Positions 3,432 through 28,558 of a stretch of DNA of 64,000 nt are shown here, piece after piece. Source of the stretch: Escherichia virus TH32. Numbering within the stretch: the stretch's first letter is position 1; the number at the start of each line of letters is the position of its first letter. The translations under genes and the position numbers were made by a program. The DNA lies in sequence record MT446405.1; one strand, given 5' to 3'. The notes below the pieces were generated by a model. It ran no database searches. It saw nothing but the letters and a program-made list of their open reading frames with translations, and was not told the origin of the DNA.

Positions 3432-4970
3432 TTAAATAAGAACGTCACGACCTTCAACGCGACGCACAGCATCATCTTTAGAGTAGATTAGCGTGTATGT
3501 TGCATAGTATTCGGTGCGGTTATCGGAAGTGGTTTCAGTGTCAAAATCGACAGTCAACCAATAACCGATAGTCTCAACCTGCCGCCAAGCAGTGTTGTCA
3601 CCGGAGGTTTGCGTGATGTACTGTTTCTGAATTTCCGTCAGCGCCTTACCGACAGAGATGGTGCCGTTAACCTTCGCATTGTCAACAGCAACTTGAATCA
3701 TGGCTTGGACAGTCGCTTTGCCTTCTTCGTTTGCAGGCACGCGACCAAGATTCAAGAACATGCTGAACAGCTGAGAAGTGATAGCAGATTTAAGCCACAT
3801 CTCGTTGGCATAAGTGTTCATGTCAACTGCTGCGGTAGACCCGCCCATCAGAACACCACGCTGGAAGAACGCGAGAGTTTGACCAGCTTGCTGAGTCGCA
3901 CCGATATAGTTTGCACGGTTTTGATCAGCAGTATCTGCGCGTGAATCAGTCGATACGGTTACATTTCGCGTTTCAAACTGATAATACATGTAGTTTTGAG
4001 TTGCATTTACAGTGTTATAGTTTGTCGCCGCAAGAATTTCAGCAGGTGCCTGGTCGATGTAATCATTAGCGAGGTTAGTTGCACGGATCATCATACCAAC
4101 GCCTGAGTAACCTTTCAACGCGGTATAGTATGAGCCGATGTTGGCGAATGCAGTCGAGAACAGATACATGTACATGTTGTTCTGCGAGTGAGTCCAAGCT
4201 GCAACGGCTGTGATTTCTTCCAGCGTTCGGTCTGCTCCAGCGAAAAGGAATGAGCCAAAGTTGTTGGAAATCTCCACAGATGCTGCGATGGCTTCTACCG
4301 GACTTGCTACACCCTGGCCAGCAACCGTAACGGTGCCAGTAGTCGTCCAACCAAGCGCCTGAGATGGGTCGGTCGGTTGGCCTGTGACGTTGATAGACAG
4401 GTTGCCTGCACCAGCGGTCGAAGGCGCTGCTTCCAGCGTAAACTGCTGAGTATTAGCATTCCAATACACTTCTGCATCAGCAAGTGCAGGCACCGACGTG
4501 CCACCTTCTGCTGCGAATTTAGTATTGATTGCCGTTTCCAGAAGTTCAGCAACATTTGCCAGACTTGTCGCCGCTGAAAGGTTAATTGCGTCAGTCAGGT
4601 AGTCTGTGCCATCGTAAGTGATGCTTAAGATAGCGCCAGTAAATGCTTGAAACGTAGCAAGCACTTTAGGCTCAGTATCGCCGATAACCATTGCAGGAAT
4701 CGCCGTGGATACAACGCGAGAAAAGCTGATTGAATCAGGCGAGTTGATTTGCTTGCTGATGAATCCAAAATACAGTGCTGCGCGCTTGTATTCTTCGGAA
4801 GAAAAACCAAAATATGATCCAACGGCATCAGCAGTTGAAAATTCTGCTACAATGCCTGGCGGCAGAACTGTATTAGAAGTCATGACGCGAAGCGACAGTT
4901 TGCGAACTGCAACAGCCGCGCCTGCTCCGACCCCTGATACAATTTTAATATAACGAGATTGACTGATCAC
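3432..4970 (-). CDS. Putative tail sheath protein
   Basis: 512-aa ORF directly upstream of a tube-like gene in the structural operon. Assignment is by size and position only. Confidence 0.4.
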   Translation of the reverse strand: MISQSRYIKIVSGVGAGAAVAVRKLSLRVMTSNTVLPPGIVAEFSTADAVGSYFGFSSEEYKRAALYFGFISKQINSPDSISFSRVVSTAIPAMVIGDTEPKVLATFQAFTGAILSITYDGTDYLTDAINLSAATSLANVAELLETAINTKFAAEGGTSVPALADAEVYWNANTQQFTLEAAPSTAGAGNLSINVTGQPTDPSQALGWTTTGTVTVAGQGVASPVEAIAASVEISNNFGSFLFAGADRTLEEITAVAAWTHSQNNMYMYLFSTAFANIGSYYTALKGYSGVGMMIRATNLANDYIDQAPAEILAATNYNTVNATQNYMYYQFETRNVTVSTDSRADTADQNRANYIGATQQAGQTLAFFQRGVLMGGSTAAVDMNTYANEMWLKSAITSQLFSMFLNLGRVPANEEGKATVQAMIQVAVDNAKVNGTISVGKALTEIQKQYITQTSGDNTAWRQVETIGYWLTVDFDTETTSDNRTEYYATYTLIYSKDDAVRRVEGRDVLI

Positions 4971-4982
4971 GTCGGTGTCCTC

Positions 4983-5468
4983 TTATTTAATGACTTGGCT
5001 GCTGACAGATTGCCACATGAGGCTAGTGTGAATCAAAGGCTTGTCGAATCCCTTCACACGTACAGTATATCTGGCGTTTGGTTGCCACGGTCCGTTTTTA
5101 ATTGATTCGACAATCTTTGCTTCCATCGCAAGCCCAATCTGACCTAATGCCTGTCTAGCGTCTATTTTACCGGAAAAAATCTTTTTAGCAATTTTATTCT
5201 CTATTTCACTGCGCTCACTAACGAATAATTCATAGGCATATCTCATGAATGGTCTGGGTGGCACTTCTACCCTGACTGGCCCTTGCCCAAAGTTCAAAAC
5301 GGCTATGTGACCAAATTCATTAAGTCGCGCGACTTCTGACACCAACATTCCTTCCCCACCAGTTTCTGAAGGGTATCTGGTAGAATCAAACCATCCTGCT
5401 TCAACAGTAAGACCCTTCATCGATTGAAGCGCCTTTATCTGTTTTTCTATCATTTTTGATTTTGTCAT
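4983..5468 (-). CDS. Hypothetical virion protein (head-tail joining region)
   Basis: 161-aa ORF between capsid and sheath genes. Confidence 0.4.
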   Translation of the reverse strand: MTKSKMIEKQIKALQSMKGLTVEAGWFDSTRYPSETGGEGMLVSEVARLNEFGHIAVLNFGQGPVRVEVPPRPFMRYAYELFVSERSEIENKIAKKIFSGKIDARQALGQIGLAMEAKIVESIKNGPWQPNARYTVRVKGFDKPLIHTSLMWQSVSSQVIK

Positions 5469-22521: not shown

Positions 22522-22770
22522 ATGAATCAAAATGAATCAGTAGCATTCTTACAATGGCTGGAAGGTGTGGTGGAGTATTACGCTCCAAAAGACCGTTTCA
22601 TCTTTCAAGGCAAAAGCTTCAAGCGCAAAGGTCAAGCACAGAAAGCAGCGCGTAAGTACTGGAAGGAAGTTTATTCAGAGTTCTTTCAGCAGATGGGCAT
22701 TATCGGTGCGACCGTATCCGGCGACCCAGCACAGTTGGTATCGATTGATGAATCCAATCGTTACAATTAA
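22522..22770 (+). CDS. Hypothetical protein
   Basis: 82-aa ORF with GAGG RBS. Confidence 0.45.
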   Translation: MNQNESVAFLQWLEGVVEYYAPKDRFIFQGKSFKRKGQAQKAARKYWKEVYSEFFQQMGIIGATVSGDPAQLVSIDESNRYN

Positions 22771-22845
22771 TAAACCGATTTGAATGCCGCGCCATGCGGC
22801 TTTATTATAGTTATTGTTAATCACCCAAATATTAAAGGTAATGAT

Positions 22846-23226
22846 ATGTCAAATAAAAATGATTCTATGAGTCACACATATACTAAAGGCAGCGGCATTG
22901 CTTTTGGTTCCAGCATCAAAATTGACGCTCCACCTTGCTATTCTGATGGATTGGAAGTTGGCAACCGTGACTTGACATGGGTTTTACGTCGCCAATCCGA
23001 TTTAGAAGAGAAGTTGGAAAATATTGAGCGTTCTCTCGAAAGTTTGCGCGACCAGCTTTTTGGTTGTTCTGAAGATGATTCTAAATCTCCAGAGTATTGC
23101 GTTAATCATGGTTTGATTGATAATATGCTCGCCACAACCGCTCGATCAATTGGTAAAACTGTGTCCATTGAGTCGTTGATCAGCCAGATTGCTGATGGAT
23201 TTGGTGATGCCCATAAGAGTGAATAG
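22846..23226 (+). CDS. Hypothetical protein
   Basis: Track ORF 22780..23226; start at the internal Met with AAAGG RBS; last plus-strand gene before the ORF-free island. Confidence 0.45.
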   Translation: MSNKNDSMSHTYTKGSGIAFGSSIKIDAPPCYSDGLEVGNRDLTWVLRRQSDLEEKLENIERSLESLRDQLFGCSEDDSKSPEYCVNHGLIDNMLATTARSIGKTVSIESLISQIADGFGDAHKSE

Positions 23227-23257
23227 TGGGTGGATGTTGCTTTAACCGTGAATCGTG

Positions 23258-23285
23258 GGTCGCTGTGGCGGCCCTTTCTTTTGCC
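23258..23285 (+). terminator. Putative terminator after the plus-strand gene block
   Basis: Imperfect GC hairpin gggtcgc-tgtg-gcggccc followed by tttcttttg. Confidence 0.3.
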
Positions 23286-23924
23286 TGCCGCGCAGGAGTG
23301 TACTGCAAATTTCCTGTGGGTACAAAATAGTACGGTACTGTCCAGGACTTTTTCTTTGAAAAGTTAGTGGACCAAATGTGTAGTATTTTGATTAGTGTAC
23401 CGCAAATTCCATCAAGTACCAAAACGCACCAAAAGACCCATGCCATAAAAACCACACGAACGCAATAATCAATCGACGTTACAGTTTCCAGCGTTACAAT
23501 TCGAAAGCGAATGATTCGACGCATAATAATATGAAGCATAATGATTCGAAAGCAAATGATTGCGTGTAGGATAATATCGGTGGGGATTATTCTAGATGCA
23601 TGTAATTTCGCATGCGTACTATTTTCGGACGAAGGGTCGGCATATTCCTCGTTTTAGTTCGGAACGAAGGGAAAGTTTTGCGCCTTTATAAAACAACGAC
23701 TTACGCGACCCGCCCTAACGGTCCGATATAGGTGTCTATATAAAACAAGGACTTACGCGATGTTCTCCATTTAACGTAATACCTGTTATGCGAACTAAGA
23801 CGCATCTCGAAGAAGATTATGCGACGACGAAGGGAAGGATAAAGGAGTTTTCGCGTAGGAGCGCATCGAGATAGGGACGAAGAAAAGCCGCGACTAAGCG
23901 CGGCCTATTAGTAACGGAAGGGTA

Positions 23925-24215
23925 TTATAAGGAGACGATTTTAAAATAAGTTACTTCGCCGCCGAGTTGCGGTACAGCGATATATTCGCCGCCGATTTCG
24001 GTAATCGTATAAACGAAGCCGTTAATCGTTACGCGATAGGATACGATGTCCTCGTCGCGATACTTGTAAAGGTCGAGGAAGTTGATCGGCTCATAAATAG
24101 ACTCGATAATCGCGTCTACGTTAGAGAGATAAACGCTCTCTAAGGTTTCGCCAAATACGTTAGAGTTTTCGGAAGTTTCGACGCGAGCGGAACGGATAGC
24201 GGCTAAAGTAATCAT
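23925..24215 (-). CDS. Island paralog family member 1 (96 aa), unknown function
   Basis: AGGAG RBS; paralogous to 24850..25134 and 24324..24626 (shared SEN..VY..NVD..IE, F.LY, NG(F/Y), EIG blocks); own promoter-leader cassette. Confidence 0.55.
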   Translation of the reverse strand: MITLAAIRSARVETSENSNVFGETLESVYLSNVDAIIESIYEPINFLDLYKYRDEDIVSYRVTINGFVYTITEIGGEYIAVPQLGGEVTYFKIVSL

Positions 24216-24283
24216 AATAATCTCCTAGTTGGTCGGGCGGGTAGCGACCTATTCGCTACCTCATCCCCTCTCGATATAAAACA

Positions 24284-24320
24284 TTATAGTCTTAGTGTAC
24301 GAAGAAGTAAAGCACTTTTT
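24284..24320 (-). promoter_or_regulatory. Conserved promoter of paralog 1 (CTTTACTTCTTCGTACACT ... TATAAT)
   Basis: Minus-sense GTGCTTTACTTCTTCGTACACTAAGACTATAAT followed by the ATATCGAG leader; the same element precedes the other two paralogs. Confidence 0.5.
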
Positions 24321-24323
24321 TCG

Positions 24324-24626
24324 TTATTTTGCGATAAAATATTTATAAGCTTTATCGCCTTCTACGTCGATATACTCGACGATAATTAATGCTTCGCCGC
24401 GAGGCGTAACCGTCTCGATAAGGGTAACGGCTTCGTCGTCGGTCTTCGCGAAGCGGATGGCGCTACGTTCGGCGTATTTAATTTCGTCGAAGGAAAGGCC
24501 GACGAAGGCGACGGCGCGCGCTTTAATAATGCTCGTTTCGAGTTCCGCGTTAACGGCAGCGATAAGAGAGCGAACGGTTAAGCGGTCTTCGTCGTAAGTA
24601 AGGATGGAAGAGATTAAAGTAGTCAT
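24324..24626 (-). CDS. Island paralog family member 2 (about 100 aa), unknown function
   Basis: Track ORF 24324..24683; start placed at the internal Met MTTLISS (RBS GGAG) which aligns with the paralog N-termini; conserved promoter upstream. Confidence 0.5.
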   Translation of the reverse strand: MTTLISSILTYDEDRLTVRSLIAAVNAELETSIIKARAVAFVGLSFDEIKYAERSAIRFAKTDDEAVTLIETVTPRGEALIIVEYIDVEGDKAYKYFIAK

Positions 24627-24683
24627 AATAAAGCTCCCGATGCTAGTAGAAGGAAGGGCCATCGCCCGTCTCGATATAAACAA

Positions 24684-24725
24684 GTATACGCGAGTGTACG
24701 AAGAAGTAAAGAAAAAGATAAAATA
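24684..24725 (-). promoter_or_regulatory. Conserved promoter of paralog 2
   Basis: Minus-sense CTTTACTTCTTCGTACACTcgcgTATACT then tgtttATATCGAGACGGG. Confidence 0.45.
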
Positions 24726-24747
24726 ATTTATCGCATTTTTATCGAAA

Positions 24748-24790
24748 AAGTGCTTTACTTTTTTCTACACTATATTATAATGTACTCATA
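24748..24790 (+). promoter_or_regulatory. Conserved promoter of paralog 3 (divergent from the paralog 2 promoter)
   Basis: GTGCTTTACTTTTTTCTACACTatatTATAAT then gtactcATATCGGGACGGG. Confidence 0.5.
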
Positions 24791-24849
24791 TCGGGACGGG
24801 ATGAGTTAACGAATAGGTCGTTAACGCCTCTCCCAACTAGGAGTTTAAA

Positions 24850-25134
24850 ATGGCTATTCTTAACGTTTCTTCTATCCGTAACGCCATCGTCGAGAACTAC
24901 GGCGTAAAACAAAAATTATCCGAAGTCTACGCCGCGAACGTAGACCAAACTATCGAAGAGGGTGGGGTAACGGTCGCCGAGGCTTTTAAACTTTACGCGG
25001 CGTTACCGGAATCGGACCGCGAAGCCTTCGAAGTAAACGTTAACGGATACTTCTTCGAAGCGGTCGAAATCGGTAATATTTTACTCGTTATGGGCGAAGA
25101 AGAATTTGAGACCTTCTCCCTCGTCGAAGCGTAA
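24850..25134 (+). CDS. Island paralog family member 3 (94 aa), unknown function
   Basis: AGGAG RBS; clear paralogy to 23925..24215; leader carries a conserved hairpin. Confidence 0.55.
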   Translation: MAILNVSSIRNAIVENYGVKQKLSEVYAANVDQTIEEGGVTVAEAFKLYAALPESDREAFEVNVNGYFFEAVEIGNILLVMGEEEFETFSLVEA

Positions 25135-25214
25135 GAGAGGATTTTTAGAGCGTCGTGCGCGGCGCTTTAATAAAATTCTTTCGCGCCTAGCGCCCTAACA
25201 AATAGGAGTTTATT

Positions 25215-25841
25215 ATGGTTAGCTTAAATCGCTTTTCTACTAGCGGCGACGTTATCGCAACTAAGACCGCCGACCTCGTTGCATTTTACAATGCAAATTC
25301 CGGTTCGAAGCCGATTAAAAAGTTCGCTGACCGCCGGACCGCCGAGACTCGCGTAATCGCGCTAATCGAGTCCTTAAACGCGCTCGATGAGCCGTCCAAC
25401 GAATCGCCCATCCCAGACGCGAAGCCGCGCGAGGAAGTGTCCAGCGATGTAAAAACGCACAAGGCGCGTGCGGTCGTTAAAAAGGCCGAGCCGACCCAGG
25501 AAGAACTCGACGCGATGAGCGATGAAGAGTATGAAGCCTTCGTTAAGAGCGGCTTAAACGATAGTGCAAATTGCGTAGTGCAAAATGGAACTCCTTCCCA
25601 TCGCCGTTCGAATAGCGAAGGTATTGCAAAAAGTTGGGATAATAAGGAAGTGGCGCAAAAGCGTCTTACCCGTAACGGCGTTATGGTCGAGGGTGTAGGC
25701 GAGTTCAAATCGGTCCGCGTAGCATTCGCCGCGCTGGGCTTACCGGATAGCAAACACATTCGCTTCCGTATGAAGCTTAAGGAAGCTGGGCGCTTGAACT
25801 TCGAGTTCGGCAACAAGTCCTACACATTCCAGATTATCTAA
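25215..25841 (+). CDS. Hypothetical protein (208 aa)
   Basis: AGGAG RBS; shares the CG-rich codon style of the island; contains two ATAGTGCAAA boxes read as D-S-A-N-C. Confidence 0.45.
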   Translation: MVSLNRFSTSGDVIATKTADLVAFYNANSGSKPIKKFADRRTAETRVIALIESLNALDEPSNESPIPDAKPREEVSSDVKTHKARAVVKKAEPTQEELDAMSDEEYEAFVKSGLNDSANCVVQNGTPSHRRSNSEGIAKSWDNKEVAQKRLTRNGVMVEGVGEFKSVRVAFAALGLPDSKHIRFRMKLKEAGRLNFEFGNKSYTFQII

Positions 25842-25891
25842 TCGAATGGCGGCCCTTCGGGGTCGCTTTTCATAGTGCAAATTGGTGGCTT

Positions 25892-26155
25892 ATGAATACG
25901 CTTATTCTCATCGCTACGTTGTCCATCGGAAGTGGTCGCACCTTATCCCTTTACGACCATAGTGCAAATTGCGCTTACCCTACGCGCGTTGCGGCAATAG
26001 TTAATAGTGCAAATCGAATGCTATTCGAAACTTGTTGGCGGGTCGATAACGAGAAAGGGCGCATCGTCTTAGGTTATAGTGCGAATCTGCTGGTGGAGTC
26101 GTTCGATTGGACGGTTGAAGGTCGTAAATTGTTACGTAAGGTGACTAAAAGATGA
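25892..26155 (+). CDS. Questionable ORF overlapping the ATAGTGCAAAT boxes
   Basis: 87-aa ORF whose frame reads the boxes as xSAN; no convincing RBS; may be non-coding. Confidence 0.25.
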   Translation: MNTLILIATLSIGSGRTLSLYDHSANCAYPTRVAAIVNSANRMLFETCWRVDNEKGRIVLGYSANLLVESFDWTVEGRKLLRKVTKR

Positions 26156-26269
26156 CTTATAATAATACACTTTCTAACGCGTTTATGGTTGTAACCTTCC
26201 CCGTCGTATTACCGATGGCCCTAGAAGTGGAGAAAATGTGTTCTAGGGCCGTTTTATAGTGCAAATTGG

Positions 26270-26758
26270 CTAGTGGCGGGAGAATTGCTCGCCTTCTTTG
26301 GCCGCCTCTCCGAAATCCTTGTAGAAATCGTCCATGGAACGGCCCATTTTACTATTGCCGTTTTCATCAATCATCGTGATGCCGTAGATGATATTCAGTT
26401 CACGAATAGCATTAAGTTTGGCTGACGCCGCGACTTCTGGATCACGCACAAGCTTGACCAAATTGTGAATTGCACCTTTTACGCTCCACAAATCCTTGAG
26501 TGGCATCTCTTCCATACGCTTTTTGAAGCGCATTTTGTAGTATGGGTTGCGTTGCGCGCAAAGGATTCGCTGGCCAGTGTAGCTATCCGTTGCAACTTCC
26601 ATTCCAAATACTAGTGCAAAAGCTGCGCGCATGTCATGGCCCTGAATAACAAGGTCAATGAACTCATCGAATAAAGCCTGATTGTGCTCTGCAAATCGCG
26701 GGTCTTCAAAGTCTTCAGGCATCGCTACATAATCTTGACTCATAGTGCAAAATCCCAT
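26270..26758 (-). CDS. Hypothetical protein (162 aa)
   Basis: Minus-strand ORF with typical phage codon style; start region coincides with the ATAGTGCAAAT boxes, so the true start may be the second Met (MSQDY, at 26743). Confidence 0.45.
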   Translation of the reverse strand: MGFCTMSQDYVAMPEDFEDPRFAEHNQALFDEFIDLVIQGHDMRAAFALVFGMEVATDSYTGQRILCAQRNPYYKMRFKKRMEEMPLKDLWSVKGAIHNLVKLVRDPEVAASAKLNAIRELNIIYGITMIDENGNSKMGRSMDDFYKDFGEAAKEGEQFSRH

Positions 26759-26969
26759 AGTGCAAATTAATAGTGTGAATTATACAATGGATGGACATTA
26801 TATTCAAGTGCAGATTGATGTTCATTATGGCTATAAACGTACACAAATCACAGTGCTGAATGGATAACGGACCGTGGTGCGTGGTGTACTGTTTGATACG
26901 TATAAAAGAAATCCATCCCTTTTGCCGCTTGTTATGCAAATCAATGACTTAGCCGCTGCTGGCTGGTCG

Positions 26970-27300
26970 AAGCGTATCATGACGTATCATCCGTATTGCC
27001 GCAAGTCTTTGTTTTTACTTATATCTTACGGATAATACGTTAAATATATAAATTAACATAAGTATGAGGATGTAGAAAAAAATTAATTTAAATGATTTTA
27101 AAATGGAGTTAATTAATTTTTCAAATTATATATATAACGATGCCCAGTTTTATCCGTATCATCCGTAAGATTAATGTACAAGCCAGGCGCGGCAAGGGCT
27201 GTACACTGATACGGATAAAAAACCATGACGTATCATGACGTAAGGGTGTACCAATTTGGAAAGGATGAATCCAGGAACGGCGCGGCCTGTAGCCATGATA
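26970..27300. repeat. Second iteron/AT-rich region, homologous to 10780..11060
   Basis: cgtatcatgacgtatcatccgta (26975), AT-rich 27040-27140, ttatccgtatcatccgtaagatt (27149; near-identical to 10989-11015), gatacggataaaaa (27208), catgacgtatcatgacgta (27226). Confidence 0.7.
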
Positions 27301-27581
27301 CGCTTAATTTTTAACCGTATTTTAGGCGTATCAAATGTGTTCAAACACCAAGTTTCACGACACTAAAATTTCAATCCATAGACAATTCCTAACAAACACC
27401 ACGGACTAATAGATACGCCCTATAAAATATATTTCTAAATATTTCCGCACAATCAATAAATAAAACACAACCTCATAATCATTCCATCGCAAAACACGAC
27501 CCAAACAACAAAAGGCCGCATAAAGCGACCCATTGCACACATTCCATTCTTCAAAACACGTAAACAGTGTTCGTTTATTCA

Positions 27582-28118
27582 CTATATCTTAGGCATTAAT
27601 CCCTTTTCAGTTCTCCTTTTTATTTCTTCTTTTATCATTTTATTGGTGACTTTATAGCCAATCCTCTCCAATTCCAGCAGCACTTCGTTTTGGTATTTTT
27701 TTATCTTCACAATATCGACTGTATCCCTCCAATAAGAAAATACCTTCTGAATTACTGCTTCATCCATTTTATATCTTGCTGTCGTCCTGTATTTCGATTT
27801 GAAGATATAATTGATTGCATCAGTCTTTAACCATTCGCTTCTCAACTCAGGGTGATCATCCCAAAGAGCTATGGCAAACTCTTGCGGGCTTTTACATCTT
27901 TTTCTAAGCTCCTTTATGTAATCAGTTATGCTGGTTTTGTCACAAAAACGTTTGCGGCAAACTTTGCATTCTTCCTTGAGTAACCATTCAGCCTTATTAC
28001 TTTGCGACGCTGATTCATTATCCCTTCTGTACCTGCCGCATATACTTATTCCTTCATTATCCAAGAAGTAATGCAAGTCTTTAGAATACTTAGCTTTACG
28101 CCAAAAGCCGCCCATCAA
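27582..28118 (-). CDS. Hypothetical Cys-rich protein (178 aa)
   Basis: Last gene of the minus-strand early cluster; several Cys pairs (CKVCRKRFC, RKRCKSP). Confidence 0.45.
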   Translation of the reverse strand: MMGGFWRKAKYSKDLHYFLDNEGISICGRYRRDNESASQSNKAEWLLKEECKVCRKRFCDKTSITDYIKELRKRCKSPQEFAIALWDDHPELRSEWLKTDAINYIFKSKYRTTARYKMDEAVIQKVFSYWRDTVDIVKIKKYQNEVLLELERIGYKVTNKMIKEEIKRRTEKGLMPKI

Positions 28119-28558
28119 CCCTCCTTAACGACCCGATAAGCAATAATCTTTGCACCAGTCGGGCTTGTGACTTTATCCCATGTCAAACTATCCGAAGGAA
28201 CGGCCTCTTTTGATTTATAACCGTTGAGTAATTCAAACTCAACCATCTTCCCAGGCACCGGATTCGCGCCACCAAACCACACGGTCCACGCTTCCTCCTT
28301 CGGCGAATCCTTGCTACGGTTTATTGTTTCGCTGAAAAGTTTAACAACATCTTCAGCGGCTTTGATGCGCTCGCGGTATTGCTCAAGCTCTTCTGTTAAT
28401 GACTCATTAAGTTTAAGCAGCGCGGCATAGTCCTCATATTCAACGTAGCCGCCTTCATCATCCTTTACAACTTCGCAAGTGCAAGCGTGCTGTGTGCAAT
28501 AATCAACATCGTAACGTTGTATCATAAATAGTCTGCCTTCTTCGTTTCTTTTATGCAT
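28115..28558 (-). CDS. Hypothetical protein; shares a C-terminal domain with 29407..29916
   Basis: C-terminal GGANPVPGKMVEFELLNGYKSKEAVPSDSLTWDKVTSPTGAKIIAYRVVKEG aligns with the C-terminus of 29407..29916. Confidence 0.5.
   Translation of the reverse strand: MHKRNEEGRLFMIQRYDVDYCTQHACTCEVVKDDEGGYVEYEDYAALLKLNESLTEELEQYRERIKAAEDVVKLFSETINRSKDSPKEEAWTVWFGGANPVPGKMVEFELLNGYKSKEAVPSDSLTWDKVTSPTGAKIIAYRVVKEG

Follow-up and report, generated by a model that had tools for sequence, protein, structure and literature searches.

The stretch from 23,227 to 23,924 in the 64,000 nucleotides of Escherichia virus TH32 analysed here (record MT446405.1; hereafter the window) carries no convincing gene and several families of short direct repeats. 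Judging from its sequence, it is probably a cis-acting site that generates a genome end, recognized by the terminase and transcriptionally insulated on both sides. The stretch lies at the junction of unique DNA and a 3.7-kb direct terminal repeat (DTR), and hence would hold one of the two sites at which concatemeric DNA is cut. A conserved end signal at this junction probably directs the cut of the packaging enzyme. Positions 22700-24400 of the window match 28 phage records at 90-96% identity, all of them from myoviruses of the genus Wifcevirus that infect E. coli or Shigella and have genomes near 68 kb, and the source phage belongs to this class of Wifcevirus-like E. coli myoviruses with a long DTR.

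The genome end between two convergent transcription units

The first-pass annotation, made from the letters of the window alone, had reported no convincing open reading frame (ORF) between 23227 and 23924, and this was borne out when the stretch was compared with related genomes. Mechanical calling gave ORFs of 30-119 aa, none of which is intact in all of 16 close relatives; that of 119 aa, on the minus strand, is disrupted in every one of the 16, by frameshifting indels of 1, 2, 7, 35 or 45 bp. The non-coding stretch is highly conserved when the window is aligned with 16 relatives (17 genomes). The pairwise diversity across 23200-23900, profiled in 11 genomes, is 0.02-0.05, except in its most variable part, the pair of repeats called D1 below (pi = 0.081), compared with 0.08-0.13 in the flanking genes. 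The flanking proteins drop to 83% identity on the left (with one outlier at 55.6%) and to 63.5% on the right where the non-coding stretch stays at 94-97%. The non-coding DNA is conserved at least as well as its neighbours, and the comparison with relatives which the first-pass annotation had proposed revealed strong conservation without coding capacity. Small coding sequences (CDSs) labelled as hypothetical proteins are annotated in the homologous junction of several records, namely Kyle (3438-3641, which straddles the DTR boundary), kaset (4501-5079) and Mansfield (3520-3684 and 3937-4056). Since the corresponding ORFs of the window are not conserved, these CDSs are probably spurious, and caution is advisable when small ORFs are annotated in the junction, as some records do.

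Upstream of the stretch, a plus-strand operon of late or tail-fibre genes and small genes ends with a CDS that stops at 23226. The terminator scan placed an intrinsic terminator of this operon at 23257..23284 on the plus strand, with a 7-pair stem containing 6 G-C pairs followed by TTTCTTTT. It is also annotated in WFH and WFC, and the relatives vary mainly in or beside its loop. On the other side, the first gene of the DTR (23925-24215) is on the minus strand and is transcribed toward the genome end. Its predicted intrinsic terminator, at 23885..23906 on the minus strand (8 pairs, 6 of them G-C, then TTCTTCGT), is the best-scoring one of the scan and is annotated in Mansfield, WFH and WFC, and a hairpin and tail homologous to it were found in the Pantoea phage Kyle. 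Two transcription units thus converge, each with its own terminator, and the ORF-free stretch of about 600 bp is the gap between them, with the chromosome end inside it.

The position of this end was obtained by homology to mapped relatives. The records of WFH, SP13 and Ro157lw hold both copies of the DTR, and the two ends of each record were compared, while the end of Mansfield came from PhageTerm. The four share the repeat end sequence ...GGCATGGGTCTTT / ...GTTCGTGTGGTTTTTAKGGCATGGGTCTTT, which corresponds to window positions 23461..23432 on the minus strand. The same homologous end in four independently deposited relatives places the physical genome end of the window, i.e., the inner DTR boundary, between 23431 and 23432. 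Position 1 of the relatives' records maps to the far boundary, between 27104 and 27105. With these two boundaries the DTR of the window spans 23432-27104 and measures 3,673 bp, the same length as the annotated DTR of Mansfield.

In the relatives, the direct terminal repeats measure 3.5-3.9 kb. The Mansfield repeat was obtained in a published PhageTerm analysis (PMC6753283), that of Ro157lw is 3,533 bp by PhageTerm (PMC6454146), and that of WFC and WFH was given as 'about 3.7 kb' (PMC6563267). The existence, position and length of the DTR are therefore already known from published Wifcevirus, Kylevirus and Myosmarvirus genomes (Mansfield, Ro157lw, WFC/WFH, Kyle, MyoSmar and MTx), and the repeat and boundary considered here are the same as the annotated ones. 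The published accounts of these DTRs give only the repeat length, and we found no description in them of the non-coding junction, of the TTAGTGTAC-N31 element or of the AATGATT array presented below; the junction region is likewise not mentioned in publications about the biology of Wifcevirus or about the synthetic phage vB_Eco4M-7. What the first-pass annotation took for an accessory island is the DTR, whose boundary inside the stretch went unrecognized. The part of the ORF-free stretch that lies inside the DTR (23432-23924, 493 bp) contains three repeat families. The first ~60 nt of virion DNA at this end (23432..23490, plus strand) are about 70% A + C, a strand bias that is also seen, and is strong, in MyoSmar, and can be partly aligned with Kyle.

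The terminus element and its proposed role in end formation

Three families of short direct repeats had been listed from the sequence alone, and all three were found where they had been placed and nowhere else in the 64-kb window. The copies of GTACYGCAAATT are at 23300 and 23397, those of ATTCGAAAGCRAATGATT at 23499 and 23544 (43-nt units with a 45-bp spacing), and those of TATAAAACAASGACTTACGCGA at 23687 and 23739. At least two matches were obtained in 24/100 shuffles for GTACYGCAAATT and in 5/100 shuffles for ATTCGAAAGCRAATGATT, whereas TATAAAACAASGACTTACGCGA had no match in 100 shuffles. The first two families taken alone are therefore within chance, and we accept them as real because of their longer extended units and their conservation across genera.

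The first family, written 'gtacYgcaaatt' in the first-pass annotation, is part of an element of about 45 nt on the unique side of the junction, consisting of TTAGTGTAC, 31 nt and the cut. Its proximal copy B (23389..23431, plus strand) starts with TGATTAGTGTAC, continues with 31 nt ending in CGCACCA and finishes where the unique DNA ends; it holds the second annotated repeat, gtaccgcaaattcc. The distal copy A (23294..23334, plus strand), with the layout AGTGTAC-TGCAAATTTCC-N-GTAC-AAAA, holds the first one, gtactgcaaatttcc, and aligns to copy B across about 37 nt. A degenerate third core, TTAGTGGAC, is located at 23364..23372 on the plus strand, one mismatch from TTAGTGTAC, and lies outside the conserved element as counted here. 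The TTAGTGTAC core is invariant in 17/17 Wifcevirus genomes.

The same element was recognized in two other genera. Kyle was deposited with both DTR copies (3,603 bp), and the DTR of the Serratia phage MyoSmar was determined by PhageTerm (3,559 bp), so their boundaries are known independently of the window. On the unique side, up to the cut, the window reads TGATTAGTGTAC-cgcaaattccatcaagtaccaaaaCGCACCA, Kyle reads TGATTAGTGTAC-tgtgaaattggaccaggtactaaatCGCGGTC and MyoSmar reads TTAGTGTAC-gtgccaatccattttgtgtgaaatCGCACCA. The distances from the core to the end are 31 nt, 32 nt and 31 nt for the window, Kyle and MyoSmar, respectively, and the last 7 nt before the cut are identical in the window and MyoSmar. 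In fixed register, 27/45 positions are identical to MyoSmar, a value reached by 0/17,910 null positions in its loci, and 23/45 to Kyle, a value reached by 20/29,910. On the DTR side the fixed-register identity to Kyle is 22/45, reached by 27/29,910 null positions. When the whole 700-bp region was aligned freely to the Kyle junction, the element was the top local alignment, with a score of 35 against a null maximum of 30. The small terminases (TerS) of Kyle and MyoSmar are only 36-43% identical to that of the window. A second unique-side copy is also found in MyoSmar and MTx, at a distance of 32 nt, and in Kyle, at 339 nt. Five Myosmarvirus genomes show almost no variation from the distal copy up to and across the cut, in contrast to their divergent DTR interior.

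The second family lies just inside the DTR and is made up of two 43-nt D1 units, 45 bp apart (23490..23577, plus strand), with the heptamer AATGATT at 23510, 23540 and 23555. These three heptamers are within the first 130 bp of the DTR, where about 0.05 would be expected per 200 bp. Kyle has four AATGATT in the last 140 bp of its DTR, with pairs also 45 bp apart (Poisson P ~3e-7). The D1 unit gave the second-best local alignment to Kyle, whose score of 28 is below the null maximum of 30. The suggestion that the repeats form a protein-binding array fits these observations, in that they lie at and around the physical genome end and two of the families, the AATGATT units and the GTAC...AAATT...AGTGTAC element, keep their position or spacing relative to the end in other genera, which is what cis-acting DNA sites would be expected to do.

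The candidate binder is encoded in the same DTR. The minus-strand gene at 26270-26758 is a genuine TerS gene, as judged by its match to PDB 7UXE (E217 TerS) with E = 6e-34. Its position inside the terminal repeat implies two copies per virion. Homologues of this TerS with 31-43% identity are present in Pbunavirus, Serratia, Pantoea and other phages, and in the Pseudomonas phage E217 the small terminase gene was reported to be about 58 kb from the large terminase gene.

In the mechanism we propose, replicated concatemers would be cut at the junction to yield virion chromosomes. Two types of sites would lie between the terminators, a duplicated element of about 45 nt whose proximal copy ends at the cut and the AATGATT array just inside. 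The phage terminase, with the small subunit from 26270-26758, would recognize these sites; the conserved element would set the position of the nuclease cut, and the phased repeats would help to build the terminase-DNA complex. Both the terminase as the binder and the element as the determinant of the cut are what we infer from this arrangement. More tentatively, and with the balance somewhat against it, a bipartite signal of this kind may set the start of the DTR across the enterobacterial myovirus clade formed by Wifcevirus, Kylevirus and Myosmarvirus, namely a duplicated GTAC..AAATT..AGTGTAC that ends 31 nt before the cut together with phased AATGATT. The mechanism by which long direct terminal repeats are generated has been called unknown (PMC6454146). 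If true, the bipartite signal would be the first sequence-level handle on it, and a short element that several genera share at a constant distance from the end offers a concrete, mutable target for studying the choice of the cut site. Wifcevirus phages are being studied for phage therapy and diagnostics, and one of them has been rebuilt from PCR fragments (PMC11074155). Knowing a non-coding boundary DNA that is probably essential would aid genome engineering as well as the correct opening and annotation of genomes.

Several points weigh against a terminase site of this design. The end of this phage is placed by homology to mapped relatives and not by reads. The deposited boundary of WFC is 81 nt further out, at 23351, though the local sequence is nearly identical, and the PhageTerm boundaries of MTx are 14-15 nt inward of the homologous MyoSmar ones at both ends (MTx 1-15 and 3566; MyoSmar 1 and 3559). 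We suspect that the MTx offset is a read-trimming artefact, as this pattern is expected if the reads were 5'-trimmed before the analysis. Because of the offsets in WFC and MTx (81 nt and ~15 nt), the agreement among the called cut positions is imperfect. In the proximal core, TTAGTGTCC is found in MTx and Hera. AATGATT was not found in Myosmarvirus, whose same end is strongly C-rich and G-poor on one strand (the first 150 nt of MyoSmar have fractions of 0.43 for C and 0.09 for G). No motif common to both DTR boundaries was found beyond chance, and hence it is not obvious that both cuts follow a single recognition rule. Two further repeat pairs described below, D2 and D3 (23615-23760), are the most conserved repeats of the region and fall outside the end-formation model. 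Finally, the TerS of E217, once purified, did not bind DNA to any appreciable extent in vitro (review PMC9611059).

The element is also lacking from Pbunaviruses and from more distant uncultivated relatives. For the record of the Pbunavirus Ab27, the genome was opened close to TerS, at a fixed end defined by reads, where no DTR was detected (PMC4482731); Ab27 has neither the element nor a comparable non-coding gap. A TerS-profile scan of IMG/VR retrieved uncultivated relatives and Pbunavirus-like contigs, none of which has GTACACT at the expected distance beyond TerS. Since Ab27 and these contigs are without it, the element belongs to the enterobacterial long-DTR clade. Scans of IMG/VR with the D2 pattern and with a TGATTAGTGTAC..AAATT pattern returned only known Wifcevirus and Kyle genomes, the other matches having unrelated flanks, and a DNA search of the phage collection for distant relatives of the non-coding stretch returned only the 28 Wifcevirus records.

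The proposed arrangement resembles known end-forming sites in part. The cos site of phage lambda comprises cosN, the cosB R-sites bound by the small terminase, and a site for integration host factor (IHF), and its repeats lie on one side of the cut at a fixed distance, as they do here. The ends of the present phages differ in being of the direct-repeat, blunt type (3.5-3.9 kb in relatives) rather than cohesive, no IHF consensus site was found, and the sequences are dissimilar. Binding of the small terminase is putative here, and appreciable DNA binding was not seen with the related TerS of E217, as mentioned. Phages T7 and T3 have a defined chromosome end at the boundary of a direct terminal repeat with short-repeat non-coding DNA adjoining it, and part of their end-formation sequences lies outside the terminal repeat; the present junction would share these traits. 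The repeat of the window, however, is 3.7 kb long and bears genes, including that of the small terminase, compared with 160-230 bp in T7 and T3, and the sequences are dissimilar. No association with a promoter or pause site of a phage RNA polymerase was found, and the DTR promoters here are sigma-70-like. PB1-like phages have been reported to be without an RNA polymerase (PMC4482731).

Interior repeats and alternative explanations

Besides D1, the DTR part of the stretch holds two D2 units (CTWTATAAAACAASGACTTACGCGA), 52 bp apart at 23684..23760 on the plus strand, which correspond to the third family of the first-pass annotation, and two units of a fourth family that was not listed in it. The latter, D3 (CGTnnTAnTTyGGAACGAAGGG), occurs at 23615 and 23650 (23615..23671, plus strand), 35 bp apart. 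The sequence ACGAAGGG has four copies in the window, three of them in this region. D2 is the most conserved part of the region, with pi of 0.018 for 23700-23799. A similarity of D2 to CAACCACTTAC near the end of MyoSmar and MTx was weak and not significant. D2 and D3 were also considered as sigma-70 promoters, which was supported neither by manual inspection nor by the promoter scan.

Since D2 and D3 are highly conserved at 180-330 bp from the cut, the repeats might bind proteins for another task at the end, such as holding or pausing the leading DNA end during injection, as proposed for the injection stop signal (iss) of T5, or starting replication or duplication of the DTR. We regard this as unlikely. 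The iss of phage T5 is likewise a large, untranslated region of direct and inverted repeats within a long DTR that is conserved and thought to act in cis (bioRxiv 10.1101/866236). T5 has an ordered set of 8 DnaA boxes, whereas the present region has none (TTWTNCACA; 0 even at one mismatch, with 1.2 expected from the density in the window). Moreover, what is conserved across genera here directly adjoins the chromosome end itself, and these phages are not known to inject their DNA in two steps. The regular spacing of the direct repeats (45, 35 and 52 bp) is iteron-like. Iteron-type origins typically have three or more iterons, and each direct-repeat family here has two copies. The region contains no match to the IHF consensus WATCAANNNNTTR and no Chi site. 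It also lacks an AT-rich unwinding tract, with a GC content of 0.435 (23001-24000) that is close to that of its neighbours, and AT-rich nested palindromes are located at the other DTR boundary instead. The conservation across genera is tied to the exact end and not to the interior repeats.

The first-pass annotation had also raised one or more non-coding RNAs as a candidate function, and this idea fared poorly. In its most concrete form, a plus-strand transcript of about 320 nt would start from promoters in D1 (~23583) and run to the hairpin at 23885-23906. Each D1 unit does overlap a weak sigma-70-like site (TCGAAA-N18-AATAAT or GATAAT), the spacer is less conserved than the -35 and -10 hexamers, and the stretch as a whole is strongly conserved without coding capacity. 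The promoter matches, however, are only 9/12, compared with TTTACT-N16/17-TATAAT in the real DTR promoters, and one D1 unit is dispensable, because Bas100 is missing exactly one 45-bp unit. The covariance-model check proposed earlier gave no Rfam match at the gathering score in the whole window, and at permissive thresholds nothing credible emerged; the best sub-threshold match in the region reached 17 bits against 40 and fell on a terminator hairpin. Structure prediction on both strands, also proposed earlier, showed ordinary stability compared with shuffled sequences (z = -0.89 for the plus strand and -0.23 for the minus strand), and DNA folding around the cut was not unusually stable either. 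The two predicted terminators of the stretch face inward, and the hairpin at 23885-23906 has no T-run on the plus strand. The sole terminator-like hairpin inside the region on that strand (23596..23617; ATGCATGT/GCATGCGT, then ACTATTTT) is not conserved, as a CAT to TCG change in the 5' arm breaks its stem in 8/16 relatives. Kyle has the same layout and no inward promoter. A non-coding RNA locus is hence very improbable.

A further explanation concerns D2 and D3 only, which might be functionless relics of the DTR promoter and leader cassettes, left behind as small early genes came and went. The first-pass annotation had reported the motif ATATCGGA on the minus strand here and in the leaders of the neighbouring cassettes. 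It is indeed present on the minus strand, once in the window (23722-23729, flanked by the two D2 units), which is at chance level. The exact octamer is not in the cassette leaders, which have the one-mismatch forms ATATCGAGA and ATATCGGGA, and the leader motif in these forms is kept across genera. The minus strand of D2 weakly resembles the core and leader of the DTR promoter P2, with the -10 hexamer disrupted, and GTTTTATAT and ATATCGGA are reminiscent of the conserved leader TATAAT-GTTTTATATCGRGA. Cassette content does vary nearby, six relatives having an extra gene at about 23930. The similarity of D2 to P2 is marginal, however, the score being reached by 4/300 shuffles before correction for six comparisons. 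The low variability of D2 and D3 (pi 0.018) is unexpected for decaying relics, yet the whole DTR is rather conserved in the genus. Overall, we consider a relic origin of these two families highly doubtful.

The rest of the direct terminal repeat

Three near-identical promoters were found in the DTR, at 24283-24311 (minus strand), 24683-24710 (minus strand) and 24754-24781 (plus strand), by their promoter and leader pattern. They read TTTACT-N16/17-TATAAT (TATACT in P2) followed by GTTTTATATCGRGA, and drive small paralogous genes. The combination of promoter and leader (GT.TTATATCGRRA..GGG) is common to four phages of three genera (Kyle 2077-2900, MyoSmar 255, MTx 3336), which suggests a conserved module of early promoters and leaders. 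The DTR proteins encoded at 23925-24215 (minus strand, 96 aa) and 24850-25134 (plus strand, 94 aa) look like paralogues by eye, with near-identical divergent promoters driving them; neither protein had a Pfam or PHROG match. Among the DTR proteins, Pfam gave no match besides TerS, and two proteins, including TerS, matched PHROGs of unknown function. No tRNA was found by a scan of the 64-kb window.

The core heptamer GTACACT occurs only five times in the window, compared with about eight expected, and all five sites are between 23297 and 27207. Four are on the minus strand (23297, 23394, 24294 and 24693), two of them in the copies of the terminus element and two in the P1 and P2 spacers, and the fifth is an outer site on the plus strand (27201), 97 nt outside the far DTR boundary. 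The rough probability of such clustering is 7e-5. GTACACT is also found near the TerS-proximal end in Kyle, MyoSmar, MTx and some Pbunavirus-like contigs, with varying positions and orientations. This distribution may reflect a shared DNA-binding protein or may be a coincidence. By extension, one DNA-binding protein could tie the control of the early promoters to the recognition of the end.

The far boundary, between 27104 and 27105, lies at the centre of a nest of imperfect, AT-rich palindromes (27078-27099/27100-27121; 27038-27054/27123-27139; 27013-27039/27155-27181). Around it (26970-27340) are numerous copies of GTATCATCCGTA, CGTATCATGACGTA and TACGGATA, and the small terminase gene is about 350 bp away. 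This boundary is a candidate site of packaging initiation, hairpin priming or replication origin. Directly outside it, at 27105-28400, the diversity is 0.3-0.4, compared with 0.02-0.07 within the DTR, and the sequence is hypervariable and poorly alignable.

Variation was also seen toward both edges of the gene-free stretch. On the left, two tandem heptamers, GTGAATC and GTGGGTC, are located at 23248..23261 on the plus strand, the second overlapping the 5' arm of the terminator stem. The number of heptamer copies beside this terminator ranges from 2 to 7 in the 17-genome alignment, the extra GTGGGTC units being five in Mansfield (its ~3545-3590) and one each in F13, SP13 and Bas99. On the right, the extra gene at about 23930, which lies between the terminator and the gene at 23925-24215 and is absent from the window, is about 230 bp long (210-230) and is carried by F13, SP13, Eco4M-7, ECML-117, Ro157lw and FEC19; in F13 it is labelled 'transcriptional regulator'.

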